DNA of 64,000 nt from positions 19,708,936-19,772,935 of the forward strand of contig NC_090398.1 in NCBI RefSeq assembly GCF_036365525.1, written 5' to 3'. A program made the translations under genes and the position numbers. This document shows positions 1 to 58,488 of the stretch, piece by piece (the first letter of the stretch is position 1; the number at the start of each line of letters is the position of its first letter). The notes below the pieces were generated by a model. That model did not search any database. It had not been told where the DNA came from and saw only the letters and a program-made list of their open reading frames with translations. The DNA comes from Heterodontus francisci (Eukaryota).

Positions 1-394
1 ATCAAAAAGGAAACGAGGAAAGCAAAGAGAGAGCATGACAGAATATTGGCAAGCAAAATCAAGTTGAACCCAAAGATGTTTAATCAATACGTTAAGAGTA
101 AGAGGATAACTAAGCAAAGAGCAGGGCCCATAAAAGACTAAAAACATAACCTATGTGTAAGGGCGAAAGATGTTGATATTGTTCTTAATGAATACTTTGT
201 GTCTGCATAAAAGAGGAGGACAATGCAGGTATTGTAGTTAAGGGAAAGGCATGTGAAGGATTGGATGTGATAAACATAGGGAGAGAGGAAGTATAAATGG
301 GATGAACATCCTTGATAAATCACCAGGACCGGATGAATCGTACGCCAGGCTATTAAAAGAAGCAAGTGATGAAATAGCAGAAGGTCTGACCATC
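1..394 (+). mobile_element. CR1-type LINE ORF2 fragment (degenerate), 3' side joined directly to the GPCR pseudogene
   Basis: Translates to ...DKSPGPDESYARLLKEASDEIAEGLTI, which matches the CR1 ORF2 segment DKSPGPDGLHPWLLKEAREEITDALRII seen at ~47450-47540. Confidence 0.85.
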
Positions 395-1279
395 TCTGCC
401 TACATGGTAGCGATAGCAACAGCAGATCTACTGGTCATGATTTTCCATATAATACTTAGTCACATTTGTACATATCATTTCCCACATTCCTTTCTGTCCT
501 ATACTGCCGTTTGTAAGTTTATGAATTACATCAGTGCTACCAGCCTGCATATGTCCGTGTGGTTTACAACCTTGTTCACATTCGACAGATTTGTAGCTAT
601 ATGTTGTCAAAGGTTTAAAACAAAGTATTGCACAGTAAGAAATGCAGCTGTGGCTATAACAACAGTCTCTGTTCTAGTCTTTTCACACAGCGTCCCATTT
701 TTCTATGCATTTCAATCTGAGAAAATACTTAACAATATTGATTGGGGTTATCAATCCAGTCTGGCATTTTTTTCATCGCCTGCAGGAGTCGGGTTCTTCT
801 GGTTACAAAGTATTTTAGTGACTTGGATTCCTTTTTGTTTGATATTATTGTTTAATTGTTTGACAGTCAGACAGATTGTTGTTGCAAGTAAAGCGCGCAG
901 GGAATTGCGGGGTCACAGCAGCGAGAACCAGAGTGATCCAGAGATGGAAACTAGAAGGAAAACCATCATTTTACTGTTCAGTGTATCGGGCAGTTATATA
1001 GTGCTGTGGATGACAAATATCATTAGTTTTTGAACTACCGGACTGGCAGATACAGCACATTACCGGGGCGATTATGCAGTCCCTAAGTACATCGCCACTG
1101 AAACCGGATATATGCTCTTGTATTTGAGTTCCTGTTCAAACACGTGTATTTATGCGGCTACACAAACTAAATTCAGGGAAGAACTAAAGATGGTGCTGAA
1201 ATATGTTTGGATATTTAGGATATTGGGTGAAACAAAGAACAAATCAAACGAAGATTTCTTGTCCGAAAACGTGTTATAA
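391..1279 (+). pseudogene. GPR139/GPR142-like class A GPCR pseudogene (copy 1): TM1 missing, premature stop
   Basis: ISAYMVAIATADLLV...TFDRFVAICC...SDPEMETRRK...SGSYIVLW aligns with copy 2. There is an in-frame TGA at 1031-1033, after which the frame continues TTGLADTAHYRGDY...SSCSNTCIYAATQTKFREELK to TAA 1277-1279. The ECL2 Cys is lost (WGY vs WGC). Confidence 0.9.
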
Positions 1280-3879
1280 TTACAGGCGGTGTTCATTTTT
1301 GAATGGCCGTTTTTCTGCGAGGACAAACGCGGATTGTTGTTGTGAAACTGTACAGATATCAGAACATATTTCTTTCACTGCATGCTGTCTGTATGATGTC
1401 GATATCTTTATCCGGATGAACATAATCACTTCCTGGTGCCGAGTCAGAGTGGACAGTAATGATTGAACTTCAGTGAAGTAGAGTATATGGGGTGTCAGTG
1501 GTAACTGCCCTCGACCTCAGCTACTGGAATGAGAGTCTCAGTTTCATTAACTGATAACCTTTTCTTTATTGAAGAAGCAAAGTCTTACAATCATAGTCAT
1601 TTTGTAATTCTGATGTAATTTTAATTTGAATGGTGCAGGCTCTGGTCTCCTCATCGGACTCTGACCATCCCCATACGGGACCCTCACCCGCCCCCACGCC
1701 CCTTGTCCTTCGTGCAATAGAACGGGCTCCTAATAAGTATCTAATGCTGGAAAAAGTAGAAATCTGACTTGCTAATGTGACGTTAGATAGCTATGTTCAT
1801 TTATATTTATTCAAACTCTCAACTGCTCATCCAAACGTTGGAATGTTACCACAGGAGAAAAATTTGTGCGACCCAATCAGTCCAAGTCGACGTTTACCCT
1901 CCACCCTGACAAATAGTTCACTTTACCATCTCTGTCTCAACGTATCTTTTGTCTATTTTTATTTGACCATCTTTTCAATATAATCTTGAATATAAATATA
2001 ATTTCTGCCTCGGTTAATTCTACTGCCTCACAGCTCTCCATATAAGAAAGTCTCTCCTACCCTTAGTTCTAAACATTTTACATTAAATCTTCAATCACGA
2101 GCCGTGCTTTACAGATGCCTCAATAGGAACACACTGCTTCCATATCCTTTCATATTCTTGCATAACGTAAATCACCTGGGCAAGCCTCACCAAAATATAT
2201 CAAACTTGTCTCAATGAACAAACTAGCGAATGTCAAGAAAGTGTATTTAAAATGGCGAACTGACAGATTTCTGTTGGAAATGCTTCTATCCTTGCTTGTG
2301 CTGGAGAATGAGAGGAATATATTTGATAGCTTGTCGCTTTCGGAATCATCAGCTCATGTGGGAAGAGATTCTAATAAAATGCCTCCACATCCCCATTGAT
2401 AGAAGCCCGAAAGGTTAGGAATAGCTTGAATCAAATGTCTTATGCTGGATGACCTTGGGATATCAGTGTGTGTGCAGAAGTGATGTGTTACCCGTGTCAC
2501 ACTCGGCTTGTAATGTCATGATGAAGATGGTCTGAGGAACGAATCCAAAACGTGGTCACTCAGGCTGATAAGACCACTCCACGAAATGGTTAATGAGTCT
2601 CTAGATAGTGAGAGCTTGTTTAAAATGAATTGATAGAGATCTGCGCAAATGATTAGATCGAGATAGATCTATGATCCTGATGACATGCTGTTTAATGATG
2701 CCTGAAAATACTCTAATGTTTCTCGGTATATTATAATAATGTTAAACTTTTGGCATTTTCCTGTTAAACAGGAAAATACGACTCCATTTAAGTCACAACT
2801 GGGCGGTTGGACCAGGCTGTAATAGTCATTTTCACGATAATTAATAAGACATTTTACGAAAGCCATGCCAGTGTATTCATAACTTTCAAAGAATTTTAAT
2901 CATTTGATTACTGGTGATAACTAATTCTGCAAAGGCAAACATTTGTCATATGTCATCATTTGCAATTGTAAGCAATGATACAGAAACAAGGAAAAAAAAC
3001 AAAGAATTCAAAGTCTAACTTGGTATAATTGTACAGAGATAGATCAAAAGTGAAACTATCGGTAAATAAGGAACTGAGGCTATAATATCTGTTAGGCCCA
3101 TGGAGGAACAGCTGGCTCAGTGAGGGAAAAATCGTTATTGACAAACAATAACTAAACGTTATTCTTTGTATAATTACGTACCACAGAATTGTGTGGATTG
3201 CCACACAGAGACAGTGAGAGAAAATGATTCAAAAAACGACCATTTTGTAATGAGTATCGTCATGAACTCAGAACGGTAAAACACTTAAATTCCCACGCAA
3301 TCATCACCGTGTGTGAGCGAAATCTAACATTTTAATTGTGTATTTAAGTACTATTACGTGTACTGCGTGTTTAATAAACATGATATCTCACTTCCGTGTT
3401 CATGAAACTTATTGAAAACATTATGCCAACAATAACCCTAGCATTATAAATATGAATGGGCATCATTTATTAATTTTGATTAAATTCCCCCTTTACCTAT
3501 CACATTTGCTCCCCGTCATTCAGAAGTTCAAAAAACCAAACTCCACACAATTCCATTTGCCCATGGATCTCAGGCTCTGCCAATCTGGCTGATATCCAGC
3601 TTCTGTGGGAAATGGTGGTGAATTACGAGCAGTTTTTCTTTGTACCCATAATGGACACATTCTAATTTAACTGAATCCAGACGATCAACAGGATTACGGC
3701 AAGAGCCAGGCAGCAGGCAGATGCTGTAATTCCATTGATTATATCAATAGCAATGTATCTGCACCCAACTACAATTGTGAGAAGCCGATATGTCATCATT
3801 CACATCATCCAAAATCAACACGCAAAATAGAAAGCAATGGCATGAAGAAGTTAACTGTTGCATTACTACGTCAATTTTA

Positions 3880-4470
3880 TTCCCATATGGTTGTGATACA
3901 GCCACCCCTGTTCCTAATTAAAAAGTTGTCGTGTTCCCTTGAGTGTCTTTATTTCTAATTAAACAGTTACTGTGTTCTCCTGACATTCCGTGCCCTCTAC
4001 TTGTTATTGAAGAGTATCTGTGTTCCCTTGTCACCTACTTCGAAAAACATGGTGTCTGTTCCTTGCGCCCAATTCCTAAACTTCTAAAAATTCTGAACTG
4101 AACAGTTACTGTGTTCTCCTAAATTTCCCTGTTCTCTATTTCTCTATGAAACCGTTAGTATGTTTTCCTAACTTATCCTGTCGTTTATTTCTAATTTAGC
4201 AGTGATTATGCTTCGCTAAACTCATTATTTCTAATTAAACATGCACTGTTTTCCGAAATCTCCCTGTTCTCTATTTCGAATTAAACAGTTACTGTACTCC
4301 CCGAAATCTCCCTTTTTCTCTTGCTCATTGAAACGTTACCGTGGTCCCCCTAAATCTGCCTGTTCCACATTTCTAATTAAACTGTTACTCTATACCACTA
4401 AACTCACGTTTATTTTATTTCTAATTAAATTGTTGTTGCAATCCTCAAAATCCCCTGTCCTTTATATCTA
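3880..4470. repeat. Degenerate AT-rich minisatellite, ~40-45 bp unit (TTCTAATTAAACAGTTACTGTGTTCTCC...)
   Basis: Recurrent tttctaattaaa(c)agttactgtgttc motif visible about a dozen times. Confidence 0.75.
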
Positions 4471-4479
4471 TGTAACAGT

Positions 4480-5960
4480 TACACTGTGAGCGAGGAGGTA
4501 AAAGGGCAGATGCTAGACATCCTGTGATTGCTTGGGAAGGTGCCATGGGAAAGGGTGAGATGTCAGGGGTGCTGGACAATGAGACCAGGAGGTCACGGCG
4601 AGAATGGTCCCATCTGAATGCTGAGAGGGAGTGGACATGTTCGGTAGTAGCATCACCATTGATGTGTCGGAAACGATGGGTGATAAGCCTGTAGATCAAG
4701 AGGCTGATGGTGTGGAAAAGGAGGACAATGGGAACCCCATCCCGCTTCTGGGGGGGAAGGGAAGGGGTGAGGGTTGAACTGCGGGAAATGGGTGGACACT
4801 GATGAAGGAACTGTCAACCAAAGTGGAATAGGAGGAGGGGAATGCTCAGTTGAAGGAAAATGAAGCATATTAAAAGTGCTGCTGTGGAAGGTGGCATCAT
4901 CTAAACAGATATGATGCAGATGGAAAAACTGGGAGCATGGAATGGAGTCCTTACAGATGACAGAGTGTGAGGAGGTGTAGTCAAGGTAGCTGTGGGAGTA
5001 GGTGGGCTCATAATGAGCATTACTACACAGCCTATCCCCAGAAATGGAGACCGAGAAGTCGAAAAATGGAAGGGAAATGTGACAGTGCAAAGGTGAGAGA
5101 AGGGTGGAAATTGGAAACGAAGTTGATGAAGTTTCCATTTCGGGAAGAGAGCAGGAACGTCACTGATACAGTCATCAATGTACCGAAAAAAGAGTTGGGG
5201 GAGTGAGCCTGAGTAGGACTAGAACAAGAATGTTCAACATACCGCACAAAAAGACATGCATAACGAGGTCCCATATAGGTACCCATAGCAACACAGGGGT
5301 GGCACAGTGGCGCAGTGGTTAGCACTGCAGCCTCACAGCTCCAGGGACCCGGGTTCGATTCTGGGTACTGCCTGTGTGGAGTTTGCAAGTTCTCCCTGTG
5401 TCTGCGTGGGTTTTCTCCGGGTGCTCCGGTTTCCTCCCACAAGCCAAAAGACTTGCAGGTTGATAGGTAAATTGGCCATTATAAATTGTCACTATTATAG
5501 GTAGGTGGCAGGGAAATAATGGGACAGGTGGGGAAGTTTGGTAGGAATATGGGATTAGTGTAGGATTAGTATAAATGGGTGGTTGATGGTCGGCACAGAC
5601 TCGGTGGGCCGAAGGGCCTGTTTCAGTGCTGTATCTCTAATCGAATCTAAACACCTTTAAATTCGAGGAAGCGAGTAGAATTGAAGGAAAAGTTATTCAA
5701 TGTGAGAACAAGTTCAGCCAGGAGCAGGAAGGTGGCGGTTGATGATGGCTGGTTGGGCCTCTGTTCAAGGAGGAAACCGAGTGGTCCCAAGCCGTCCTTG
5801 TGGGAGATGGAGGTGTAGAGAGACTGGACTTCCAAAAGGAAGAGTTACATCCAGGAAGTATGCAATGGTGCAGGCCATCAGAAGAATCACGGATGTAAAT
5901 TGGAAGAGACTGGACAAGGGGAGAAATATAGAGTCAAGCGAAAAAGAAATACATTCAGTG
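4480..5960 (-). mobile_element. Penelope-like retroelement RT fragment (degenerate), interrupted by a SINE
   Basis: Minus-strand peptides EVQSLYTSISH, LAELVLTLNNFSFN, GVAMGTYMGPRYACLF and YLDYTSSH are typical PLE reverse transcriptase motifs. Confidence 0.85.
5296..5649 (+). mobile_element. tRNA-derived V-SINE (HE1-like)
   Basis: tRNA-like head (GGCGCAGTGGTTAGCAC...GGGTTCGATTC), V-domain (GTGTCTGCGTGGGTTTTCTCCGGGTGCTCCGGTTTCCTCCCAC) and CR1-like tail GGGCCGAAGGGCCTGTTTC. Possible AACAC TSD at 5290-5294 and 5650-5654. Confidence 0.9.
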
Positions 5961-5974
5961 GGGCAGAAATATAT

Positions 5975-6965
5975 ACAGTGGGGTTTACCAGCGATTGTTG
6001 TTGGGACCCCTGCTTTTTTGATACAGATTTAAGGCCTAGATTGGGTATACAGTGTACAACTTCAAAATATGTGGATGAAATAAAACGTTGAATTAGTGCC
6101 AATTGTGAGGATGATAGTGATAAACTTCAAAAGGATATCGGGTGGTGGAATGGGTGAACAAGTGGCAGATGAAAGTTAATGCAGAAAAGTGTGAAGTGAT
6201 TCATTTTGGTACAAAGAATGAGGAGAGACAATATAAATTAAAGGATAGAATTCTAACGGGGTGTCAGACCAGACGGACCTTGGGGATAAATATTGAAGGT
6301 TTCAGGGCAAGTTGAGAAAGCATATGTGATCCTGGACTTTATAAATAGGGGCATACAGTATAAAAAAGCAAAGAGGTTCTGATAAACATGAAGAAACACT
6401 TGTTTGGAGTCACCTGGAGTATTGTGTCCAAATCTGGACAGCGCATTTTTGGAAAGATATTAAGGCATTGGAGAAGGTGCAAAAACAATTCACGAGAATG
6501 ATTCCAGGGATGAGGAAGTTTTGTGACGTGGAAAGGTTGGAGATGCTGTGTCTGTTCTCTGTGAAAAGAAGATGAAGAGGAAAGTTGATCGAAAGTTGTT
6601 CGAAATCATGAGATATCTCTACAGATTAGATAGGGAGAATGTGTCCCCACTGGCCGAATGATCCAGAACCAGAGGGCACGGATTTAAGATGATTGGCAAA
6701 AGGAGCTACTGTGGCATGAGGAAAAACATTTATCCACCGCGAGTGGTTAGGATCTGGAATGAACTGCCTGACATTGTGGTGGAGGCAGATTCAATCGAGG
6801 CTTTCAAAAGAGAACTGGATAGTTATCTGAAGAGAAAAATAATAAGTGGCTACAGGGAAAAGATGGGGAGTGGGACTTATGTTATTCGCTCTTGCAGAGA
6901 GCCAGCACGGACCTGACGGGTCAAATGGTCTCCTCTGCTGTAACCTTTCTTTGATTCTTTGATTT
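5975..6965 (+). mobile_element. CR1 LINE 3' portion
   Basis: RT C-terminal peptides (SKYVDEIK, RVVRIWNELP, IEAFKRELDSYL) and a CR1-type 3' end. Confidence 0.85.
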
Positions 6966-6979
6966 TATATTCAAGAGCA

Positions 6980-7745
6980 TTCAGGTACATCTGAATGCAA
7001 ATATTTTCCAGTCCTTTGCCATTCAAACATTAATCTGTCTTATTTTAAATTATTTGTCTTATCAAAGTGGATAACCGTACACTTTGCCACATTATATTGC
7101 ATCTATCATGTTCTTGCCCACTCAACAACTCTGTCTACATTCCTTTGCAGCCTCTTTGCATCCTCCTCACTGCTTACTTTCCCACCCAACTTTGTATTGT
7201 CAGCACACTTGTGTACCTTACACTCAGACCTTTCATCCAAGTCATCGATATCGATTGCAAATAGCTGAGGCTCAAATACTGATCCTTGCAGTGCCCCACT
7301 AAATACAACCTGCCAACACATAAAGTCCTGTTTATTGCTCCTTTCTTTTTTGTAGATTAACGAATTCTAAATCCATGCTCATATAATACGTCCATTCCCA
7401 TGGGTCCTAATTTTGTGCAATAAACTCATGTATGGCACCTTATGGATTGATTCTTGCAAATATATAAAAACTACATCTGCTGATTCCCTGTAAACCATCT
7501 TAGGAGTTACATCCTCAAAAAATTCAAACAGGGTTGTCAAACGCAATTTCCATTTCATTAATCCGTGTTGACTCTGCATAATCATATTATGAATTCCCAA
7601 AATCCCTGTTACCACATTCCTTCTAGTAGATTCCAGCATTTTTCCTATGACTGATATCAGGCTAACTAGTTCCCCATTTTCTCTCTCGTATTTTTTTTCA
7701 ACTAACCAGAATGTCTTTGTTATTATTCAGTCCTTGGCAATTGTC
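6980..7745 (-). mobile_element. CR1 LINE RT fragment
   Basis: Minus-strand peptides SGALQGSVFEPQLF, KCADNTKLGG and SQHGLMK. Confidence 0.85.
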
Positions 7746-7756
7746 TAGAATCTAGA

Positions 7757-9330
7757 ATTATGATTCCACCAGACTTGACTTCCAATGTTATTCTATCCGA
7801 CCTCCCATCTTCCACACTCCATACAATTGGAATTACAGTTCTGGCCAGGTGGTAAGGGGTATGGGTGATTCACAAAGTTCACTTCCCAACTGACCGCAAT
7901 CGTGTTTTATTTAAAATAATGAATTAGTCCCTGAGTGTTTTACTCGCCAACTAAACAGAGAGTGATAGGTTTTCTTGTAAGTTTTAAACAGAAGTTTAAA
8001 TATTTAATGAGCAACATTCATTCCCCGAAATAGTTGCAACAACATTCACGCAAGCATTCACTCTCACATGCGCTCTTGAGAGAAGATATACAGAACATCA
8101 AGGGTGAGTTACAAGGTGTGGTAGCTATGTGTGGTTTATGGTAAACCTGCTGAATCTTCTAAGTAGAACAGGCTCATTTAAAAATGTAGGCCTAGCTTGT
8201 TTGTTGTCTTGACTTGCTGAGGTGTTGTTCATTTCTGGTGATCAGGATTTCAGATTGATTGTGATGGGTCACTTTCAGTTCTCTGCTGCACCAAGTTGAA
8301 GTATAGAATTCACAGCAGGGTTCCTTCTTTGTTTTGGTTTTATCATTTCACAGCCCCCTGGCTCGACTACCTTCTGTGATGTTGCTTTGATCTCCCCTCT
8401 CTCTCTGTCCAGAGAACTACCTTTTAAGATAAATCCTCTCACATTAGCTTCTGTCAGGAGATGCAAGGCCTTCTCCCATGTTGTGACCACACAATACACC
8501 AGGATGTAGAAATCATGGCCATCAATTAATGTGTGCTTGGGTAAAATTCAGGGGCAACTTCACAGCGTTTGTGATTCAGAAGTATCCATTCAATTCAGGA
8601 ATATCCCTTGATGTTTCAGGAATGGTGTAGTAGACATTTCTTAGCCTGAAATGTATCTTTTTTTCCTTAACAGGAAGTAAGGCAATGTTTGAATACATAG
8701 GCCAGGTTGGCTGATCACCAGTGGCTGTTTTTGCAACATTGCCCCACATCTTTCAAAAGGTAAAGTCAATTATAAAATAGTCCACCTCGAATAAAGTTCG
8801 TATCTTAAAAGTAACAATATAATATCGCTCTACTGGACATGACATTACCAAAAGTTGCTGCTTAGAAAGTAACCGGCATGAAGTCCCATTCACGCATCAC
8901 TCCTGTACCCATTGAACTGCATTGGCTCTCAGCACAGCAACGTATAGATTTAAAAATCCATCCTCGTGTTTAAATCCCTGCAAGACATAGACCCTGCAGA
9001 CCTCTGTGACATTATGCAGTCCAATAAACTTCAGAGAAATCTGATCTCTTGTGCATGAGAAAATTTCTTTGCCCCGCCATGGGAAGCTTGACCTTCAGCT
9101 GTGCATTCTCCAACCTCTGAAATTCCTCCCTAAACCGTTCTACCTCACTCGCCTTTGGTAAATTCTCCTTAAAACCTATGGCTTTGTCCATTCTTTTGGT
9201 CAACTGACCTAATATCACTTTCTTTGGCTCAGTTTCCCTCCCTGCATTTTTTTACGCTCATGTGAAGTGCTTTGCGGCATTTTCTTAAGTTTATGGCGCT
9301 ACATAGATAAAAGTTGTTGTTGGTGTAATG
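7757..9330 (+). mobile_element. L2-type LINE 3' fragment split by an LTR-like insertion (7837-8844)
   Basis: The flanks join into an L2-like sequence (...ctccatacaattggaattac|caaaagttgctgc...cattcacgcatcactcctg...cattggctc...) ending in an L2-type tail (ggcgctacatagataaaagttgttgttg). Confidence 0.65.
7837..8844. mobile_element. Putative solo LTR (~1 kb), Gypsy-like
   Basis: Ends in ...CATGACA, starts AG (possibly a mutated TG), flanked by a 4-bp direct repeat TTAC (7833-7836, 8845-8848), and splits a continuous L2 fragment. Confidence 0.55.
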
Positions 9331-18718: not shown

Positions 18719-20004
18719 CAATAATGTTAGAGTTGGATCAACAGCTGTAATGTTTGTGTACAGTCACCAACATTGCTGTTAGAGTTGTAGCCTCACCAAT
18801 AATTTTACAGTGGGGTTAACACCTATAAAGTTGGACTCGGTTTCTTCCCAGTAATGTTAGAGTTCCCACAAGCAGTGATAAAGTAGTGTCTCCACCATTT
18901 ACATTTGAGCAGGTCGCCACTAAAATGTTAGTATAAGTTCCTCATCAGTAATATCAGGATAAGATTGCACCAGCAATATTAGAGTAGCGTCACCAGCGGT
19001 AATCTTCGAGAAGGCTCACCAACATAAATGTTTGCCTCATGTCATCAGCGGCAGAATTCGGGAAGTCAGCATCACTGATGTTACGGTAGGGTCACCACTA
19101 TTTAAATTCGTGTTGTGTCTTCAGAAGTAAAGTTAAAATAGGATGTCCCAATAATTTTAGCTTCTGGTAAAAGTTAGAATCCATAAAGATTAGGGCAGAG
19201 ATAGCGCCAGTATTTTAGAGCAGTGGCATCATCAGTAATATTCGAGAAATAACAGCACAAATAATGCGAGAGTAGGATCACCACCAGTGATGCTATACTA
19301 TGGCCGCCAACAATAATGTTAGAATAATTGTCGCATATATTTGCGACAATTTGCGATTAATGGTCGTGTATATTTACCAACAGCAATATTAGAGTCGGGT
19401 TAACACAAGTAATTTCAAAGTGTGCGCTTCTTCAGCAATGATCCAGTATGCTCCTCACCAGTAATGTTAGAACAGGGTGACTAACGGTAATGTTAGAAGA
19501 GGATCACCCCCAGTAATGTCAAAGTAGGTTCATCCTCAGTAATGGTAGAATAAGGCCGTTACTGCTAATTATAGAACAGGATTATCTGCAGACATGCTAA
19601 AGTACAGTCATCACTAGTGATACTAGAACTGATACATCACCAGTAAGGTAAGAGAAACGTCACCAGTGGTGTTAGAACGTAATCACTGTTATCATCACAG
19701 TATATAACAATTTAAATTTACAATGGATGTGAATATTTCACTGAATTATTATGGGGCCCCAAGAACCTAACGCAGTGTCAGGAAGGTATGCTCCCTTCAG
19801 AGTTCATGGGGCAGACACAGCGCACCTACCAGTTGGGGTAACTTTCCATTATGAATTTCTAGGGCAGGAGTTTCATGGACTGAGCTACAACATCTTTGGC
19901 TTTCAGGGCGTACTGAAGCGGACAGCAGCTCCTTGTTTGTTCAGTGACTGTAACTAACGTTCCTAATTGTGCAACTTTGCTTACCCAACAGGGCATGAAT
20001 TTTC

Positions 20005-20011
20005 TATAAGA
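20005..20011 (+). promoter_or_regulatory. Candidate TATA box of GPCR copy 2
   Basis: TATAAGA ~80 nt upstream of ATG 20088; copy 3 has a TATA at the same spacing. Confidence 0.5.
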
Positions 20012-20087
20012 GGGTAACGTTAATGATTTCAGCCAAACGGGTGTTGGAAACGTAAAACTGGAAAGAGTTCCAGAATTCACACTAAAA

Positions 20088-20157
20088 ATGTTACCGCCAA
20101 TGATTCTACTGATAAGGGACATTTACTACTCTATTCTCACAGTCTTGGGTGCTCCTG
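20088..20157 (+). CDS. GPR139/GPR142-like GPCR copy 2, coding exon 1 (MLPPMILLIRDIYYSILTVLGAP)
   Basis: The YYSIL..LG.P pattern resembles the start of GPR139 TM1. Ends CCT G|GTAAG (phase-1 donor) and joins in frame to exon 2 (G+CA = Ala, NLLTIVIL). Confidence 0.85.
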
Positions 20158-20762
20158 GTAAGTCGATATATCCTGTTGTCCAATAGCTGTTGACAACATA
20201 ACTGTTAATGGTTACATAACAGATGCTGTGAATGCCCTCATTGCTGAGTCACATATCTGAAGGGATATGTGGGTGAATATCAATGGGAATCCCACTGGTC
20301 TGCGTGGCTGGTGAGTCTCTGTTCTGGTCAGTACTTCCTCGCACGGGGTGATCAGCTGTCTTATCCTGTACTGAGGGAGGTCGATGCTGCTTTCTCGCCC
20401 TTCAAACGGTACATAAATCGTGAAAGAATGTTTTATTGACTGGCCATGACAATTATCTCACTGGTACGGTTGCGTCTTGTCTATTTACAGTTGCTAATTC
20501 ATGGGCTTGCAGCTTGCTCCACCTAACAGGGACTTTGAAAGATATTTTGAGAAATAATTGCGGCTGAAGGAGCTGCTTCTCTCCCCTTGGCTACAAAGAG
20601 CTTTTGCGGTTAAACTCAGTTCCTGAGCAGTTCCATCGGGCAGATTATGAATAGAAAAAGCACAGACTTTTGAATAAATTGAACGTTCTGTCTAAGTTGA
20701 ATGTTTTAGTTGAATTCATATCTTTGTAACAATTATTTTGAAATTGTATTGAATAATACTAA

Positions 20763-21096
20763 GGGCGGCACAGTGGCTAGCACCACAGCCTCACAGCTCC
20801 AGCGACTTGGGTTCGGTTCTGAGTACTGCCTGTGCAGAGTTTACAAGTTCTACCTGTGACCGCGTGGGGTTGCTCCGGTTTCCTCCTACGTGCCAAAGAA
20901 TTGTGGGTTGGTAGGTAAATTGGCCATTGGAAAAAGGAAATGCCCCTAGTGTAGGTAAATGGTAGGAGCATTGTGGGGATGTGAGAGCGAAAAATGGGAT
21001 TAATACAGGATCGGTATCAATGGGTGGCTGATGGTCGGCACGGACTTGGTGGCCCGTAGTTGACCTGTTTCAGTGCTGTATCTCTCTATGACTCTA
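20763..21096 (+). mobile_element. V-SINE (HE1-like, more diverged) in the intron of GPCR copy 2
   Basis: tRNA-like head, V-domain and CR1-like tail ending ctatgactcta. Confidence 0.85.
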
Positions 21097-21850: not shown

Positions 21851-22788
21851 CAAACCTGTTGACAATAGTGATTCTGTCCGGAGGAAATTGCGGTCTTTCC
21901 AAATGTATTTCGCTCTACATGGTGGCCATGGCAACAGCAGATCTAATGGTCATGATCTTCAATGTAATAGTTTATCACATTTTTACATATCACTTCCCAC
22001 ATTCTTTCCTATCCTACACTGGCGTTTGTAAGTTTATTCTGTACATGAATACTGTCACCCTGCATATATCAGTGTGGTTTACTGTCTCTTTCACATTTGA
22101 CCGATTTGTAGCGATATGTTGTGAGAAGTTTAAAACAAAGTATTGCACTGTGAGAACTGCGACCACGGTTGTAACAATGGTCTCTGCCCTGTTATGTTTA
22201 CAGACACTTCCGTTCTTCTTTGCATATAAGCCTGAACAAATAATAAATAATATTCATTGGGGTTGTCACCCAAGAATGGATTTTTTTTCATCGCCAGCAG
22301 GTGTTGCCTATTCCTGGTTGCAAACGGTGTTAATTCCATGGCTTCCTTTTGTTTTGATATTATTGTTTAATTGTTTGACAGTCAAATGTATTTTAGTGGC
22401 CAGCAGAGTTCGCAGGGGATTCCGGACTCACATCGATGATAATCAGAGCGATCCTGAGATGGAGAACAGAAGGAAGTCCATTATTTTACTGTTCACAGTA
22501 TCGGGCAGTTTTATACTGCTGTGGCTGACATCAGCGGTGAGTTTTATAGCTACCGGTCTGGTAAACACAGCACATTACAGAGGTGACTATGCCGCTCCTG
22601 AATACATCGCCACTGAAACTGGATATATGCTCATGAACATGAGTTCATGTACAAACACGTGTATTTATGCAGCTACACAAACTAAATTCAGAGAAAAGCT
22701 GAAGAAACTGCTGACAGCTCCTTGGGCATTTATTCTAAAATGGATTTTAAAAATGAAAACTGAAACCAAAGCTTTCTGTTTTAGCTAG
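21851..22788 (+). CDS. GPR139/GPR142-like class A GPCR copy 2, exon 2 (full protein 335 aa, intact)
   Basis: Polypyrimidine tract plus CAG acceptor at 21848-21850. Seven hydrophobic segments, AMATADL (TM2), C-TM3...TFDRFVAIC, ECL2 WGC, TM6 FILLW, TM7 SSCTNTCIY, helix 8 KFREKLK. Confidence 0.93.
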
Positions 22789-41252: not shown

Positions 41253-42163
41253 TTATCTGCATTTTCTAACTAATTTCAAAAGTACTGCCCGGGGAGATTT
41301 CAACACATTCTTCAGCTCTTCTCTGAATTTTCTCTGGGTCACTACATAAATACATGGGTTTTGAATACAACTCAAACATTTAAGGCATGTTCCAGTTTCA
41401 GTGGCGATATATCCGGGGGCCCTGCGGTCACCACGGTCATTATTGGTGTCGGTTAGTCTGGTCGACACAAAACTCACGGCAGCTGTCAACCACAACAGTA
41501 TAAAACTGCCCGATACAGTGAACAATAAAATAATGGATTTCCTGCGATTCTCCATTTCTGAATCACTGCGATTCTCACTCCTGTTACCCTGGAGTTTCCT
41601 GCGGGTTCTATTGGCCACTAAAATACGTCCAATGGTTGAACAATTAAATGAGACAATTAAAGTAAAAGGAAGCCAAACGAGCCAGGCGCTGTAAAACCAG
41701 ACACACGCTGTACCGAGTGGTGAGGAAAAAAATTCCACACTTGCCCGACAGCCCCACTGCACCTTGTTAATTGTTTGCTGAGGTTCATATGCAAATAAAA
41801 AGAGAATGTTCTTGAACAAACACAAGAAACAGAACACTGTTATAACCACGCCTGCAGTTCTTGCAGTGCAATATCTTGTTTTAAACTTCTGGAAGCAGAC
41901 AGCTACAAAACGATCAAATGTGAAGGAGACTGTGAACCAAACAGATAAATCAAAGGTGATAGCTGTTATGTATATAACAATGCTACACACGGGGGTGTAA
42001 GACAGGAAGGAAAGTGGAAAGTGATAACTAAAAATACGATACACCATTACATTGATGATCATGACCAGGAGATCTGCTGTTGCCATGGCCACCATATAAA
42101 CAGAAATACATTTGGAAAGACCACAGTTTCTTCGGGAGAGAATCACAATCGCCACCAAGTTCA
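41253..42163 (-). CDS. GPR139/GPR142-like class A GPCR copy 3, exon 2 (full protein 326 aa, intact)
   Basis: Acceptor tttttttacag| on the minus strand. NLVAIVILSRRNCGLSKCISVYMVAMATADLLV, TFDRFVAVC, WGC, FILLW, QNPCIY, KFREELK; no internal stops. Confidence 0.93.
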
Positions 42164-42571: not shown

Positions 42572-42641
42572 CAAGGACACCCAGGGATGCGAGAATGGGG
42601 TAGTAAATGTCTTTCATCAGCAGAATAGCCGGTTTCCCCAT
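42572..42641 (-). CDS. GPR139/GPR142-like GPCR copy 3, coding exon 1 (MGKPAILLMKDIYYPILASLGVL)
   Basis: 70 nt, the same length and phase as copy 2 exon 1; donor G|GTGAG; DIYY.IL..LG motif; 408-nt intron. Confidence 0.87.
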
Positions 42642-42715
42642 TTTATGTGAGAATGGATGGAATCTGTAGGAGCTGAAAGACTGGTGCACTTCTGAACTTG
42701 TACAAGGGAACCTAT

Positions 42716-42722
42716 ATTTATA
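42716..42722 (-). promoter_or_regulatory. Candidate TATA box of GPCR copy 3
   Basis: TATAAAT on the minus strand ~75-80 nt upstream of ATG 42641. Confidence 0.55.
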
Positions 42723-43069
42723 CTCGCTTTAATCCTCCAAGGAGTCAATCTGCTTTAATTATAATTAACATTGGTGGTAGTCATTTCATAAATAAACTCA
42801 GTAAATTGATTTCTGACATTTCACATTTGGGAAAAGATTAACACGATGGCAATTTTAAAACACAAAATTAAAACATTATTTACAAATTGAATGACTGTGG
42901 ATCCTATTCCCACAGGACCAGCCAATGTCGCTCGCTTTGCACGAATTGTCCTGACGCTGACCTTCACTCTAACCTATTGATTCAACACCTGCAGATCAGG
43001 CAGCAGAAGAACTACTGCAATATTTGTGATAAAAATGGTCCTGAAACAATACAGTGGAGTATAGTTTTC

Positions 43070-45164: not shown

Positions 45165-48100
45165 CACATCTGCAGGAAGTGTAACCAGCTGCAGAAGCTT
45201 GAACTCTAGCTGTGGCTGGAGTCACTGTGGTGCATCCGCGAGGTAGAGAACGATGTTGAAAGTGCATTTCAGGAAGTATTCACCCCAGAGCATACGAAAT
45301 CGCATGGAGAGAGTGACTGGGTGCTGCCAGACAGACAGGAAGGTCAAGGCAGGAGACCCTAGGGAACATCACACTTTTTAACCAGTATTCAGTTGTGAGT
45401 ACCGATTGAAGAGAGGGTTCCTCTGGAGAGTGCAGTGAAAGTCATGACCAGAGAACCATGGATGGCTCATCTGTGCAGGGAGCGAGAATAACAGACAAGA
45501 GAGCAATAGTGGTAGAGGATTCCATAGTTAGTGGAACCGATAGGCGTTTCTGTGGTCGCAGACATGATTCCAGGATGGTATGTTACCTCCCTGGTGTAAG
45601 GGTCATGGATATCACTGAGCGGCGACAGGGCATTCTGGAGGGTGAGGGTGCACAGACAGAGGTTGTGGTACACATTGGTACCAACACTATAGGAAGAAAG
45701 AGAGATGAGGTCCTTCAGGCTGAGTACAGGGAATTAGGAAAGAGATTAGCAAGCAGGACCTCAAGGGTCGTCATCTCTTGATTACTCACAAGGCCACGTG
45801 CTAGTGAGTATAGAAATAGGAGAATACACCAGATGAATGTGTGGCTGGAGAGATGGTGCAGGAGGGAGGGCTTCAAATTTCTGAGACATTGGGACCTGTT
45901 CTGGGGACAGTGGAACGTGTGCAAGCAAGACGGTCCACACCTGAATAGGACTGGGACAAATATCCTTGCAGGAAGGTTTGCTAGTGCTGTTGGGGATGGT
46001 TTAAACTAGTTTGGCAGGGGGATGGGAACCTGAGAGAAGCTTCAGATAGGATAATTCCAGGCCAGGGAATGGAAGGCAGAAAATTGGCGGGTGACTCAGC
46101 AAAACAGAAGAAGCAATGGTTAAAAAGTGTGAAGAACAGGAATTTGGCAGTGTTAAAAGGTATTTATTTAAATGCATGGAGGATAGTAACTAAAGTCGAT
46201 GAGCTGGCGGCCCAGATAGACACGACAACACAATATTGTTGCTATAACGGACATTTCGCTTAAAGTGGGGCAGGAATGGCAGCTCAATAGCCCTAGATAC
46301 AGAGTTTTTAGGTGGGAAAGAGAGGAGAATAAAGAAAGGAAAGGGTGTAACATTATTGGTTCGGGAATCAATAACAGCTGTGAGGAGGGATGATCTGTCA
46401 AATGATTCATCAAATGAGGCCAAATGTGTGGAAATCAGAAATAAAAGGAGCAGCCACAGTACTGTGAGTGTACTGTAGACCCCCAAATAGTGAGAGTAAG
46501 ATCAAGTAACAAATATGTCGGCAAATGTTTGAGTGTAAAACTCTACAGTGATAATAGTTGGGTATTTCAGTTATCCTAATATCAACTGGAATACAAGCAG
46601 TGTGAATGGCACAGAGGGCACAAAATTCTTGAACTGCATTCAAGGGAACTTTTTTACCCAGCACATAACAAGCCCAATGGAAGGGGGTGCAATTCTAGAT
46701 TTAGTCTTCGGTAATGAAGCTGGGCAAGTCGATGAAGTGACAGTGGGTGAACATTTTGGAGATAGAGATCATAACAGTTAGTTTTAGCATAATCATGGAA
46801 AAGTACAAAGATAAGACAGGAGTGAAAAGTTCTAAATTAGGGGAAGACAAATGTTATGAAACTGAGAGGCGATCTGGAAAAAGTGGACTGGATACAGCTA
46901 CATGAGGGAAAATCAATGGCAAACCAGTGGGAGGCATTCAAAAGTGAGATTCTACAGGCACAGTGCAAGCATGTCCCCACAAAGGTAAAGGGTGGTACGG
47001 CCAAACCTCGAGCCCCCTGGTTATCAAGAGGCATATATGGTAAGATGAAGCACAGAAAGACTTCATATGACGATCGCAAGAAAACATAATACTTTAGAAA
47101 GTGTAGAGGAGTATAGAAAGTGCAGGGGTGAAGTCAAAAAGGAAATTAGAAAAGCAAAGCGAGGGCATGAAAAAATATTGGCAGGTAAAAGCAAGGAAAA
47201 CCTAAAGATGTATTATCATATTAAGAGCAAGAGGATAACAAAGGAAACAGTCGGGCCTATCAGAGATGTATAAGGGAAGTTACATGTGGATGCAAATGAT
47301 GTGGGCAGGGTTTGTAATGAGTTTTTTGCCTCTGTCTTCACAAAGGAGAGGGATGATGCAGACATTGTAGTAAAAGAGGAGGAGTGTGAAATATTAGATA
47401 CAATTAGCATAATGAGAGAAGAAGTACAAGAGGGACTGGCATCCGTGAAAGTGGATAAATCACCAGGGCCAGACGGATTGCATCCCTGGTTGTTAAAGGA
47501 AGCCAGGGAGGAAATAACAGATGCACTAAGGATCATCTTCAAATCCTCACTGGATACGGGTGAGCTGCCACAGGATTGGAGGTCTGTGAACGTTATACCA
47601 TTATTTAAAAAAGGAGCAAGTGATCGGCCAAATAATTATAGGCCGGTCATTCTAACCTCAGTGGTGGGTAAATTATTGGAATCAATTCTGAGGGACAGGA
47701 TAAATTGCCAGTTAGAAAGGCACGGACTGATCAGGGACAGTCGGCATGGATTTGTTGGGTGAAGTTCATATCTTACTTCCTGAATTGAATTCTTTGAGGA
47801 AGTAACAAGGAGTATTGATGAGGGTACTGCAGTGGATTTTAGTAAGGCAATTGATAAGGTACCACATGGCAGACTGGTCAGTAAAATGAAAGCCCATGTG
47901 ATACAGGGGGAATGTGGCCTGTTGGATCCAAAATTGACTCAGTGACAAAAAAAACAAAGGGTAGTAGTTGACGGATGCTTTTATGAATGGAATGTTGTTT
48001 GCAGCAGCGTTCCACAGGGCTCAGTGTTGGGCCCCTTGTTGTTTGTGGTCTATATTAATGAGTTGGACTTAAATATGGGAGGCATAAATGGGAAATCTGC

Positions 48101-48225
48101 AGATGAGACAAAAATTGGTCGTGTAGTGGATAGTGAAGAGAATGGCTGTAGACTCCAGAATGATATCAATGGTTTAGTTGAGTGGGCAGAAACGTGGCAA
48201 ATGGAATTTAATCCAGAGAATCTCA
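45165..48225 (+). mobile_element. Large CR1 LINE fragment: ORF1 (SGNH esterase-like) and ORF2 (APE endonuclease + RT), degenerate
   Basis: ORF1: HICRKC, RAIVVEDSIV..., VVVHIGTN and DGPHLN. ORF2: YLNAWRIV, ILDLVFGNE, DKSPGPDGLHP, NYRPVILTSVVGKLLE and GPLLFVVYINEL. Confidence 0.92.
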
Positions 48226-48234
48226 GGTCTAATT

Positions 48235-49500: not shown

Positions 49501-49504
49501 CGGG

Positions 49505-50070: not shown

Positions 50071-50579
50071 AAAACAGAGATACAGAGTTGTATTGATACA
50101 GAGTCAAGCAAACAGGAATACACAGTCTGAGATACTCGAATAGAGAGTCAAACTCACTTAAATACAGAGGCAAATGCACTGATAGATTGGGTCAGGCTCG
50201 TGAGTATACAGAAACAGGTGCAGGGAGCAAATTTTAGTGATAAATGCATTAAAAACGTATCTTGCTAATAGAAACAAAAACAGATATGTATGTTTGTGAA
50301 GAAGCTTTAAATGAGAAGACCAATTTATTGACTTACTCTTTCGTCACAATATTGAAAACTGATTTACTGATACATCTGGCATTATTTTTGCTTACATAAG
50401 TAGTTAATCTCTGTCCATGCACCGAACGAAACAATGCAGAGTATTCTGGATAGAGGTCCATCTTTCAGCAGAAACCTTGATTTCTCTCCCCCTCCCCCAC
50501 CCCTCTCACTGCACTGTGTGTGTATGTAGCTCGTTCTCTCTCCTCTCCCACACCCTCCCCACTCCCATCTCCTCTAGCT

Positions 50580-50870
50580 CTAAGGGTCACAGATTGAAAG
50601 CTTTGTGAAAAAGATGCAGGGGGAATATGAGGAATCACTTTTTTACACAGCGGGTGGTAATGACCTGGAACCTGCTGCCCACAAGGGTGGTGGAAGTGGA
50701 GACAATCATTGATATCAAGAGTAGGTTGGATGGCTACCTGAGTCAGATTGACTTGCAGGGCTACGGAGATCGAGCCAGGGAGTGGGACTGACAGCAGAGC
50801 TCTGTGGAGAGCTGGCATGGACTCTTTGGACAGAAGGAGGCCTCCTTCTGTGCCGATGTAAATGACTTTT
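50580..50870 (+). mobile_element. CR1 LINE 3' end
   Basis: ttttttacacagcgggtggtaatgacctggaac... followed by a CR1 3' terminal motif. Confidence 0.7.
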
Positions 50871-52065
50871 TGACTCTCTCTCCCCTCCTCCTCTCTCTCT
50901 CCCGCTCCCCCTTTCTCTGTCTCCTTCTCCCTATCTCTTTGGCCCTCTCCACCCTCCCTCTTTCTGTATCTTTGCCAACTCTCTCTCTCTCTTCATCCCC
51001 GTGTCTCCATTGCTCCCTGCTGCCCGGTCAGTGTTCCCCACTCCGCATTTCTGACTCCCCACTTCGTGTTGCTTGCTCAGTGTTCCCCGCTCACCACTCA
51101 GTGTTCCCCACTCCCTCTGCCCCTCGGTTCCCCTGTATCGCTGTTGCCCCTTTCACTCTCTCCCTCACCCTTCTCTCCCCTTTATGCTGTCTCTCCCTGT
51201 CCCCCTTTTTTCTCACTCTCTCTCTGTCCCCTCTCTGTCTCTCCGCCCTCTCTCTGTCCCTCATCTTTCTCTCTCTGCCCTCCTCTCTCTCTCTCTGTCC
51301 CTCCTATTTCTCTCTCTGCCCCTCCTGTTTCCCTCTCTGACCCTCCTATTTCTCTCTCTGCCCCTCCTCTTTCTCTCTCTGCCCCTCCTCTTTCTCTCTC
51401 TGACCCATCTATTTCTCTCTCTGCCCCTCCTCTTTCTCTCTCTGACCCTCCTATTTCTCTTTCTGCCCCTCCTCTTTCCCTCTCTGCGCCTCCTCTTTCT
51501 CTCTCTACCCCTCCTAATTGCTCTCTGCCCCTCCTCTTTCTCTCTCTGACCCTCCTATTTCTCTCTCTGCCCCTCCTCTCTCTCTCTGCCCCTCCTCTTT
51601 CCCTCTCTGCGCCTCCTCTTTCTCTCTCTGCCGCTCCTCTTTCCCTCTCTGCGCCTCCTCTTTCTCTCTCTGCCGATCCTCTTTCTCTCTCTGCCCCTCC
51701 TCTTTCTCTCTCTGACCCTCCTATTTCTCTCTCTGCCCCTCCTCTCTCTCTCTGCCCCTCCTCTTTCCCTCTCTGCGCCTCCTCATTCTCTCTCTGCCGC
51801 TCCTCTTTCTCTCTCTGCCACTCCTACTTCTCTCTCTGCCCCCCTATCTTTCTCTCTCTGACCCTCCTATTTCTCTGTCTGCCCCTCTGCTTTTTCTCTT
51901 TGACCTTCCCCTTTCTCTCTCTGACCCCCTCTTTCTTCTGATCTCTCTCTCTCTGCCCTCCTCTCTCTCTTCCTCTCTTTCTCTCTGTCCTCCCTTTTCC
52001 CCTATCTCTGTTCCCTCGCTCTTCTTCTCTCCGTTCACCCTCTCTGTCTCTCTCCTCCCTCTCAC
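50870..52065. repeat. Polypyrimidine/(CT)n tract with 21-bp tandem unit CTCTCTCTGCCCCTCCTCTTT
   Basis: Visible in sequence; the long ORFs here are low-complexity artefacts. Confidence 0.95.
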
Positions 52066-52109
52066 TTGCAGAGTGTGGAATGCTGAGTGGGTGGCTTTAA
52101 AAACATCAC

Positions 52110-52265
52110 GCTGTCAGTTTCACAGGTGTCAGCTGCTGATATTAGGAACAGTCGTTTCCCAACAGACTCGGGAATTTTCCAGCAGTTTCTGACTTCGGAA
52201 AACCCGAAGCTGTTGGGAAACGGCTGTTCCCAATATCAGCAGATGACACCTGTGAAACTGATAGC
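52110..52265. repeat. Long inverted repeat / hairpin (~65-70 bp arms)
   Basis: cagtttcacaggtgtcagctgctgatattaggaacagtcgtttcccaacag pairs with ctgttgggaaacggctgttcccaatatcagcagatgacacctgtgaaactg. Confidence 0.9.
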
Positions 52266-53765: not shown

Positions 53766-53769
53766 ACCT

Positions 53770-54530: not shown

Positions 54531-54534
54531 TATA

Positions 54535-55160: not shown

Positions 55161-55520
55161 ACATCTTTGTTCGCAACATACGTGGAAAGTGTTAGAAATC
55201 AACAGTTCAGAGAAGGGTAGATTTAGGGATGAGTTGATCACCTCTTACAAGATGATGAAGGAAATATATTGTGTTCCAGTTGAGTTTGTCCCAAATAAAT
55301 AGGTTCAAGCGGACGCTGGGTCAGAATTTGAAATTGTACAAGGCAAGGTCTAGGTTTGATGTCAGGAGATGGTTCATCTCACAGAGAATATTGGACCTTT
55401 GCACCAGGCTGCTTTCTCATGCGGTGGATAGCGATTCACTGAATTCTCTCAAGTGAGAGTTGGACCTGCTTTTGGATGAGGCAGGTATCACCTCTTACAA
55501 AAGGATAGGGAGCCACAAGT
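55160..55520 (+). mobile_element. Degenerate CR1 LINE 3' fragment
   Basis: RSRFDVRRWFISQRILDL...DSDSLNSLK peptide. Confidence 0.6.
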
Positions 55521-56900: not shown

Positions 56901-57601
56901 GTGAATCCCCCAAGCACCCCCACACACACCACTGTTTGACTTGAGGAAAGAGATAGACTGTGATGGCATTGTCTAGCTTGGAGGAATGGAAGGGAGTCAA
57001 TAAAGAGTCCCCTAAATTAAAGCCATTAATAATAATCAACTGACACGAGAGCATTTCCAGCAGCTGCAGCATTTTACTTTTGTAAGAAAAGATTTTGTTT
57101 CCTAAGCAGATGTGAGGAACTGAGAATGGAATCATGCAGGTGAAGGAGAGTCTGTGTCTATTGTTGGCCCTGCTGCACTGTAGAGGGCGCGCTGACTCAC
57201 TTCCGACCCCTTTCTGCCCGCTCCTCCAATGGACACCTCTTGCCGACTGCCCCACTGCTCTTTGGCATGTGTGACCTCCCTGCCCATTCTGCACCCCACC
57301 CCCCTCCCCCACCCGCAAGTGTATTCCATCCTGTTGTCAGTCACGTGTTGTCTGCAGCCCTGCTCCCCTTTGCCCTTTCTGAGGTCCCCCCTCACCCACC
57401 CCCGCCAGTATATTTTGAGCTGTGGGTCACCTCTTTTCCTCTTCACTGCTGCTCTTTTGCGTGTGTGACGCACCCGGGCAATGTATTTAGGATCATCCAG
57501 CTGTCAGTCACCACTTGCCCATTGAGGATAAATGTTATATTCATGGACTGGAAACACTGGGATCTGTTTCTGGGTTGCTCTCAGTTATATTGTTTATTCA
57601 T

Positions 57602-58488
57602 TCATTGAATAATTGATGTCAGTGGATATTTCACCGTGTTCTTGACCTGCTCCCTGAACTTGGACTGAGTCATCCCATAAATGAATGCGTTTGTGCAGCA
57701 ACTTAAATTCATCAGCATCCAGCAGACTTGTTGAAATATATATTCAGAATCGTTGTAACTCCCGGGAGCTGGTCCGATTATGGTATAATAAAATAAATCT
57801 ATAACATACACCAACCACAGAAGTATAAAGCTGCTGGAAATGGTGAAGAGTAAAATCACAGACTTCCTTCTGCTCTCCATCTCTGGGTCACTGTGTTTCT
57901 CTCCCTTGCTCTGAACCCTCAGCCCCTTACGGATACGACTGACTAAAATGTGTCTGACTGTCAGAGCGTTCAGCAACAGAATTAAAGCGAATGGTAGCAA
58001 AGGGGTTAAAACTGTAGTAAACCAGTCAAATCCCACCCATCCGGGCTCAGTAAAAAGGCTAGACTTTGCAGTACAGCCCCATGGTACACTGTCAATTATG
58101 TCTCCAGGTTCATATGTAAAGTAGAATGGGACATTTTTTAAACAGAACAGAATGCAGTATGTTGATCGAATCACTGCCGCAGTTTTCTTGGTGCAATATT
58201 TTGTTTTCAGCTTCTGGCAACAAATGGCCACATGTCGATCAAAGGTGAAAGTAACAGTGAACCAGACAGAACAGTCAATGGCTGCACGGAGCAGGACAAT
58301 GATAACAGTACACACAGGGGTGATGCCCAGGAAAGATCCCGGGAAATAATAAAAACTGATCCTGTACAATATGACCTGAGTGATAATGATCAGTAGATCC
58401 GCCGTTGCCATGGCCACCAGGTAGAGAGTGGGACAGGTGGAGAGTCCACACTTTCCCCGGGACAGGATCACAATCGCCAGTAGATTCA
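57602..58488 (-). CDS. GPR139/GPR142-like class A GPCR copy 4, exon 2 (exon 1 not found in window; possibly a young pseudogene)
   Basis: Acceptor tctctctgacag| in the same phase as copies 2 and 3. NLLAIVILSRGKCGLS, AMATADLL, TFDRHVAICC, WGC, SDPEMESRRKSVILLF, FILLW, SCCTNAFIY, KFREQVK. Confidence 0.85.

Follow-up and report, generated by a model that had tools for sequence, protein, structure and literature searches.

The best solved-structure match by sequence to the receptors described here is human GPR139 (PDB 7VUG and 9M42; E 4.7e-11), for which PMC5430874 gives F3x33, H5x43, W6x48 and N7x38 as the Trp/Phe-binding residues. The vertebrate chemoreceptor repertoires (OR, TAAR, V1R/ORA, V2R, T2R and the co-opted FPR-rs) are a second point of comparison. 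Like the family studied here, they show clustered birth-and-death turnover, their coding regions are compact with a short N-terminus, and the pocket varies where the intracellular face is conserved. Unlike them, the family appears to have originated independently from a peptide-receptor-like clade and has a coding intron in TM1. Known chemosensory genes number 65 in the catshark, versus 1,037 ORs in the mouse (PMC6368271, Table 1). The reported figure of about 65 for sharks has long been at odds with how much these animals depend on smell.

A tblastn search with four long ORFs revealed exactly four loci of the family in the window, the 64,000 nt stretch of Heterodontus francisci DNA analysed here (Table 1). 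The pairwise identity between copies is 45–66%. The first-pass annotation had proposed four paralogues, with copies 2 and 3 intact and copy 1 a pseudogene, and all of this was confirmed by tblastn and by reconstruction of ORFs and splice sites, as were the length of coding exon 1 and the intron phase in copies 2 and 3. The phase-1 intron of copy 2 is 1,693 nt long (GT..AG) and that of copy 3 is 408 nt. Retrocopies were ruled out, as intron and promoter are retained. Copy 2 shares 96% identity with paralogue P0001. The proposed list of shared motifs largely holds, with deviations in copy 1 (WGY, RRKT), copy 3 (DRFVAVC) and copy 4 (DRHVAIC).

Table 1. Features identified in the window (positions count from its first nucleotide).
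Feature	Position	Strand	Remarks
Reverse-transcriptase-like fragment, presumably LINE	257..390	+	Fused to truncated 5′ end of copy 1
Copy 1, pseudogene	391..1216	+	Exon 2 minus first ~21 codons; premature TGA at 1031–1033
Forkhead-like element, copy 2	19933..19950	+	TGTTTGTT core; ~154 nt before ATG; conserved, putative function
TATA-like box, copy 2	20002..20012	+	~83 nt before ATG
Copy 2 coding exon 1	20088..20157	+	70 nt, phase-1 donor
Copy 2 exon 2	21851..22788	+	Spliced product 335 aa, intact
Copy 3 exon 2	41253..42163	-	Spliced product 326 aa, intact
Copy 3 coding exon 1	42572..42641	-	70 nt, phase-1 donor
Copy 3 core promoter	42711..42746	-	CTCC-TT-GGAG palindrome, weakly O/E-like, plus TATA box; putative function
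Copy 4 exon 2	57602..58488	-	294 open codons, acceptor at 58488

The fragment joined to copy 1, which we take to be derived from a LINE, also matches the window at 37084–37203, 47451–47534 and 61142–61201. A copy 1-like match of equal extent, with one TGA, recurs in segmental duplicates. In copy 4 the acceptor has the position and phase seen in copies 2 and 3, as had been claimed. Its exon 1 was found neither by a profile scan of the window and 30 kb beyond nor by blastn with 27 promoter/exon-1 queries against the window and 90 kb beyond. Because of this, and because copy 4 has DRH in place of DRF, lacks one codon and ends in a short tail, the earlier suggestion that it may be decaying fits. 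It is probably a 5′-less relic of a large “c4-like” subfamily.

All four copies matched Pfam 7tm_1 (66–77 bits, cutoff 30.5; E 3e-21 to 5e-18), and the scan of these copies returned no OR, TAAR, vomeronasal or taste family profile at E 0.001. At the level of sequence profiles, their membership in the class A (rhodopsin-like) GPCRs is confirmed. The AlphaFold model of a paralogue 96% identical to a window copy is a confident 7TM structure (pLDDT 87.6) with seven helices plus helix 8 and the TM3-ECL2 cysteines. Helix 1 begins at residue 5, which upholds the very short N-terminus described at first. In Foldseek, the model matched class A receptors at a TM of about 0.7, and the closest folds are peptide receptors. 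Among 69 aligned family proteins, C83, R108, N292 and Y296 (C3.25, R3.50, N7.49 and Y7.53) are invariant and C162 is present in at least 90%. The family motifs are DRF (DRY-like) and N-T/A-x-x-Y (NPxxY-like); W6.48 is kept in 118 of 120 family sequences and P6.50 is rare (8/120).

The initial description of the genes as GPR139/GPR142-like stands for the wider clade, but not for a grouping with these two receptors. GPR139, GPR142, the orphans S3 and S4, amphioxus “GPR139” and the family form a GPR139-related clade (98/92, ten-row outgroup sampling), in which the family and GPR139/142 are separate clades, each supported at 100/100. Their union is rejected (AU p=0.023), and the tree contains no 1:1 grouping with GPR139/GPR142 orthologues. 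Orthology of the window copies to GPR139/142 is excluded by the separate clades, by identities of only 22–28% and by the presence, elsewhere in this genome, of GPR139 and GPR142 as single matches (C24:51.02 Mb and C26:62.13 Mb). Both share with the family the class A 7TM fold, the conserved W6.48 and a phase-1 acceptor before the TM1 Asn; all five gene types of this shark have the acceptor at one common codon.

Amino-acid sensing, raised as a possibility in the first-pass annotation, gained no support from a comparison with the four GPR139 residues given in PMC5430874. Among 120 family sequences, F3x33 occurs in 27, H5x43 in 40 and W6x48 in 118, and Asn is outside the six commonest residues at N7x38. 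The residues at these sites are T/Q/W/Y in copy 2 and A/Y/W/T in copy 3. Because three of the four residues (F3x33, H5x43 and N7x38) vary in the family, amino-acid sensing is without sequence support, and Trp/Phe sensing deduced from sequence was rejected.

In the tree, the nearest relatives of the family are S3 and S4, two unstudied single-copy vertebrate orphans with one match each in this genome (C3:166.5 Mb and C25:37.86 Mb). The family groups with both at 97/95 and with S4 alone at 94/88 (unstarred). They share the intron position, an IYYP-type exon 1 and similar ICL1 and TM6-start motifs with the family, and are 24–32% identical to the window copies. Unlike the family, both are single-copy and conserved in cartilaginous fishes, coelacanth, lungfish and ray-finned fishes, and S4 also in amphibians, turtles and squamates. 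Judging by species lists, they probably correspond to “GPR210A/B” in Rinne et al. 2019 (PMC6504862). The family is a fifth GPR139-related lineage and reveals a large annotation blind spot; databases label its copies “probable GPR139,” in line with the prediction that such loci are only auto-named.

In this shark genome the family exceeds 7,000 copies, and the four in the window are a small piece of it. A TM3 DNA motif matched the genome exactly at 3,990 places and, with up to two mismatches allowed, at 7,620; the reversed-pattern control matched none. These thousands of copies, where a handful might have been found, rule out a purely local four-gene cluster. The proposed lineage-expanded birth-and-death family was thereby borne out and exceeded; the cluster is part of a larger family, as had been suggested, on a scale that the suggestion put far too low. 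The exon-1-plus-donor motif had 2,998 matches, all with the exact donor. Exon 2 was open in 44 of 79 sampled loci under a strict filter, and a relaxed rule added seven full-length frames (51/79), leaving 28 broken. We therefore estimate about 4,100–5,700 open copies, which may include haplotype duplicates; this is above the 1,037 mouse ORs given in PMC6368271. In a comparison that left out chimaeras, the family was seen in sharks and rays only. Clustering of the matching proteins at 90% identity gave 2,516 clusters, and the best 120 of these represent 15 species of sharks and rays. We found no direct bony-vertebrate orthologue among the proteins compared, which included 120 of the 2,516 matches; only three unnamed, low-scoring proteins had the family profile as their best match.

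The turnover of this large, clustered family is of the birth-and-death type, with segmental duplication and pseudogenisation. Copies 2 and 4 each have 10 near-identical duplicates (93–99.7% DNA identity over 2–4 kb), pseudogenes are carried along within segmental duplicates, and many matches are on high-numbered small contigs. Because adjacent duplicates are 93–99.7% identical over kilobases, part of the count reflects recent block copying or assembly redundancy. The duplicates, the co-copied pseudogenes, the broken loci and the small contigs would also fit runaway segmental duplication in repeat-rich chromosomes, with a modest functional family, mostly redundant or silent copies and a haplotype-inflated count. 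We consider this improbable, given the exact donor kept at 2,998 exon-1 ends, the number of clusters and the species that they span. It is also opposed by the pattern of selection: on short, recent branches as well as within subfamilies, the intracellular face is under purifying selection, and positive selection is confined to the pocket and loops.

Among 120 open exon-2 sequences, dN/dS was 0.93–1.23 at 37 predicted pocket sites, 0.82–1.48 in ECL2/3, 0.16–0.24 in ICL1/2 and 0.31–0.35 in the inner TM halves, and in all 10,000 permutations the pocket value was above that of randomly chosen TM sites. Models M1a and M2a were compared with purpose-written code, in fits that did not control gene conversion. 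Positive selection was detected in two of three subfamilies, of 36 sequences (2dL 106) and 26 sequences (2dL 229), with omega 2.8–4.3 on 8–9% of sites. All selected sites are in the pocket or outer loops (11/11 and 15/15; background 88/285). Positive selection was not detected in the third subfamily, that of copies 1–3 (2dL 0, 20 sequences). By sequence, copies 2 and 3 are in an older branch common to sharks and rays. Since this branch gives no indication of positive selection, both would be stable receptors; the branch of copy 4 is among the fast-changing ones.

Because the lineage is separate and the predicted pockets diversify fast, the family is likely an overlooked chemical-sensing repertoire of sharks and rays, distinct from GPR139/GPR142. 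Each copy is predicted to bind its own set of external ligands, be they small molecules or peptides. All copies may signal via one shared pathway, with Gq/11 or Gi/o, by analogy, as the putative common G protein, and expression would be sparse, in sensory cells of the nose, mouth, gill or skin. That the family is a variable-ligand sensor repertoire, with chemosensation its most likely role, is a reading to which we give about as much credence as doubt. Slightly more tentative is the view that it may be an independent chemosensory superfamily derived from a peptide-receptor-like orphan, with ~4,000–5,700 open genes over whole chromosomes, and that no other GPCR family of vertebrates may be as large. 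If so, it would exceed the OR repertoire of the mouse several-fold, would upset the current picture of sharks as having a mere 65 or so chemoreceptor genes, and would have been missed because pipelines give every copy the same GPR139 name. A hidden family of this kind would resolve the mismatch with smell, or else expose a new system of immune recognition in the jawed vertebrates that branched off first.

The second possibility is the main rival and, in our judgement, unlikely. Modelled on formyl-peptide or Mas-related receptors, it holds that the family would serve innate immune or barrier surveillance, sensing microbial peptides or metabolites in granulocytes, macrophages or mucosal cells. 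The strong positive selection fits an arms race, and a diversifying pocket is equally typical of immune receptors, which we counted against the chemosensory reading; the selection pattern cannot tell the two apart. The known immune GPCR families number their members in tens rather than thousands, which argues against this role. Recognition of self, kin or gametes, for instance on sperm or within the reproductive tract, by binding variable endogenous peptides, seems very improbable. The fast-evolving pocket, the peptide-receptor folds and the kinship of the wider clade to invertebrate MIP/sex-peptide and FMRFamide receptors (PMC8514136; Atlas matches) agree with it, but no known ligand family shows a matching diversity.

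We found no description of the expansion in the full-text literature searched, outside which most subscription papers lie. GPR139 terms were not found in the supplements of PMC8455134 (12 of 24 files), PMC13188829, PMC11589584 (readable files), PMC10529500 and PMC11433378.

Returning to the chemosensory reading, further observations were counted against it. Olfactory-type motifs are not enriched in 27 promoters (O/E-like, 18 versus 13.5±2.5 in shuffles; homeodomain, 21 versus 17.5±2.2; strict O/E sites in only 2). The subfamily of copies 1–3 is without positive selection. Paralogue contigs occur in each of three runs from a single sample (presumed RNA, tissue unspecified, DNA may be present). 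A catshark top-50 brain-plus-olfactory list (PMC11979771, section 11) contains no GPCR of any family, which is weak evidence. Both the motif result and the contigs favour the immune alternative. The contigs do not suggest restriction to one organ, and DNA may contribute to them. In the three runs, paralogue pieces cover exon 2, none covers exon 1 or the promoter of copy 2, none has an exon 1–exon 2 joint, and one loose end reads as intron, so the contigs give no evidence of splicing. No RNA run containing copy 2 was listed. The forkhead-like element is present 19 times in the 27 promoters versus 4.2±1.6 in shuffles, and points to no tissue. The core promoter is common to different subfamilies, and an O/E-like element ~20 nt before the TATA box occurs in c4-like promoters and copy 3 only.

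Six-frame translation and tblastn identified four paralogous seven-helix coding regions (copies 1 to 4) in the window, and no fifth. All four match 7tm_1 and share 45-66% identity. As the first-pass annotation had described, copies 2 and 3 are open two-exon genes, copy 4 has the same acceptor as these, and one copy (copy 1) is a clear pseudogene. In copies 2 and 3, exon 1 spans 70 nt and the intron (GT..AG, phase 1) lies immediately before the TM1 Asn. Copy 4, with its open exon 2, had also been suspected of decay. No exon 1 turned up for it when a profile was run over the window and 30 kb beyond, nor in a blastn search of the window and 90 kb beyond using 27 promoter/exon-1 queries. Because neither scan found one, copy 4 is probably a 5'-less relic, in keeping with that suspicion. 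The intergenic frames are, we presume, RNase H-like, endonuclease and reverse-transcriptase-like. With the further gene and the two broken copies in the table, seven family loci lie in the ~194 kb around the window.

Family loci and repeats in the window and in other fetched stretches (L numbers; ECL2 is an outer loop)
Feature	Coordinates	Strand	Remarks
Copy 1	391-1216		5' end lost to LINE-like fragment; stop at 1031-1033
Copy 2	exon 1 20088-20157, exon 2 21851-22788	+	335 aa product
SINE-like repeat	20760-21100		in copy 2 intron; very deep cover in all three runs
Decayed retroelement frames and long CT-rich simple repeat	33444-33783 (-), 25272-25916 (+), 36589-38212 (-), 45410-48233 (+), 50468-52189		between window genes
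Copy 3	exon 1 42641-42572, exon 2 42163-41253	-	326 aa product
Copy 4	58488-57602		open exon 2
Further family gene	L243:9745-9814, L115:1096-1989		~9-10 kb before the window; exon 1 and promoter present; open exon 2 of ~298 codons; ECL2 HWFIRPS, without conserved Cys
Broken copy, copy-3-like	L244:299-1900		stop in ECL2
Broken copy, copy-4-like	L228:9798-L229:612		several stops
Split family exon 2	L066:5222-6248		~1 kb insert containing retroelement-like frame

The lineage expansion proposed from these genes extends to thousands of copies in the 6.0 Gb Heterodontus francisci genome, not a handful. A 26-nt TM3 motif occurs at 3,990 exact places and at 7,620 allowing up to 2 mismatches, and the reversed motif has no match in the same genome; a TM6 motif has 1,809 matches and an exon-1-plus-donor motif 2,998. 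Genome queries with copies 2 and 4 yielded 13,058 and 13,289 candidates, of which 127 (all at least 59% identical) and 133 (all at least 74% identical) were scored. Members shared between the two listed exon-2 sets (31/67 and 31/100) give an estimated total of 5,800-8,600, and detection of the TM3 motif (up to 2 mismatches) in 17 of 20 TM6-picked loci gives ~9,000. The matches listed place the family on 34 or more contigs with numbers up to 51 and on many with higher numbers.

Of the loci on the motif lists, 79 on contigs C5-C21 were sampled, and exon 2 is open in 51 of them (95% interval 54-74%). Scaled to the genome, this corresponds to 4,100-5,700 open exon-2 copies, a figure that may include haplotype duplicates, and part of the overall copy number may be such redundancy. 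Exon 1 is damaged in 2 of the 23 open loci having it within the fetched stretch. The family expands by block duplication, because copy 2 and copy 4 are each matched by ten duplicates with 93-99.7% identity across 2-4 kb. That most copies are passengers seems improbable.

A protein search returned 2,516 clusters. The range rests on the 120 listed, which come from 15 species, every one a shark or a ray; the top match listed (96%) is from H. francisci itself. Nearly all 120 carry the automatic name "probable G-protein coupled receptor 139," as had been anticipated. We found no published description of the expansion in the literature searched, and it is not mentioned in the portions available of PMC11979771, PMC11406177 and PMC12946260; supplements may bear on this. 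New here are controlled motif counts across the genome, the two single-copy sister genes and the topology test of their placement, a between-subfamily contrast in selection, and a negative result on generic olfactory promoter motifs.

True GPR139 and GPR142 each have one genome match (contigs C24 and C26). The sister genes, S3 (C3:166.5 Mb) and S4 (C25:37.86 Mb), are single orphan receptor genes conserved among fishes, S4 also in amphibians and reptiles; no mammal occurs among the 120 matches listed for either. Both are auto-named GPR139 and have Ser replacing Trp at 6.48. They are probably the GPR210A/B sets of Rinne et al. (PMC6504862, as far as the available text goes). The TM1 acceptor is common to all five gene types. 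In a maximum likelihood tree of 48 sequences (a selection from a 121-sequence first fast tree, with added S4 and family rows), the family forms a single long-stemmed clade (100/100) and groups with S3 and S4 (97/95). An amphioxus "GPR139" falls outside this group (99/94), and GPR139/142 branch farther out. A topology forcing the family together with GPR139/142 was rejected (p=0.023, with some caution given the long branches), setting the family apart from the receptors after which it had been described. Amino-acid sensing, which had also been suggested, finds no backing in the sequences: GPR139 binds Trp/Phe through four residues, according to the accessible part of PMC5430874, and three of these are variable across the family. 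For the wider clade, kinship with the invertebrate receptors for MIP/sex-peptide, FMRFamide and myosuppressin is reported (PMC8514136, in part).

In the AlphaFold model of a paralogue 96% identical to copy 2 (pLDDT 87.6), the seven helices are followed by helix 8, and helix 1 begins at residue 5. Among class A receptors, those for peptides and those for chemokines match the model about equally well. We numbered residues from alignment anchors and defined 37 family pocket sites from what we take to be the class A pocket positions. For 120 non-identical open exon-2 sequences, counting by parsimony along short branches gave dN/dS of 0.93-1.23 at these predicted pocket sites, 0.82-1.48 in outer loops ECL2/3, 0.16-0.24 in inner loops ICL1/2 and 0.64 overall. 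M1a/M2a comparisons (our own code, fixed trees, no recombination check) covered three subfamilies of our choosing, made up of 36, 26 and 20 sequences; the remaining 38 of the 120 belonged to none. Positive selection was detected in the copy-4-like set (2dL 106, omega 2.8) and the "MGYP" set (2dL 229, omega 4.3), with all high-posterior sites within the pocket or outer loops, and was absent by this test from the set holding copies 2 and 3.

In combination, the huge copy number, conserved intracellular face and diversifying pocket very probably indicate a many-ligand, one-pathway sensor repertoire, in which a variable outer pocket in each copy would signal through one conserved intracellular face. 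To our knowledge, only chemosensory GPCR families reach such copy numbers, and for this reason we favor chemosensation of waterborne ligands, at about even probability. It is also favored because the known chemosensory repertoire of the catshark comprises only 65 genes (PMC6368271, in the part available). Microbes on or within the body are a possible but rather unlikely source of the ligands, and an origin from mates and gametes is quite unlikely.

Three runs of one sample, perhaps RNA and carrying no tissue label, all yielded paralogue contigs over exon 2 (36, 65 and 19 aligned to copy 4). One contig of 1,170 nt from run X2 covers copy 2 exon 2 from the acceptor on, followed by unlike sequence. 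These contigs are compatible with transcription of family members.

From 76 promoters found, 27 were non-redundant. In most of them a TATA box lies near -90 and a TGTTTGTT-type element near -160; the latter motif occurs in 19 of 27, versus 4.2 for shuffled sequences and 9 for introns. The promoters are homologous, and therefore this frequency reflects conservation, not independent enrichment, and points to no tissue. The olfactory-type motifs (O/E-like and homeodomain), scored against what we take to be their consensus, showed no enrichment in the 27 promoters. An O/E-like palindrome lies ~20 nt upstream of the TATA box in promoters of the large copy-4 subfamily and of copy 3. In the L080/L193-type subfamily (promoters L122, L132 and L193), short ATTGGAATGTTACAACAATG-like repeats replace the TATA region and the start is shifted upstream. 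Two regions, C21:6.5-7.6 Mb and C5:201.5-203.4 Mb, have matches to the exon-1 motif just 5-8 kb apart; this spacing, tighter than that of whole genes, suggests that promoter/exon-1 cassettes have been duplicated or that the first exons are alternative ones.
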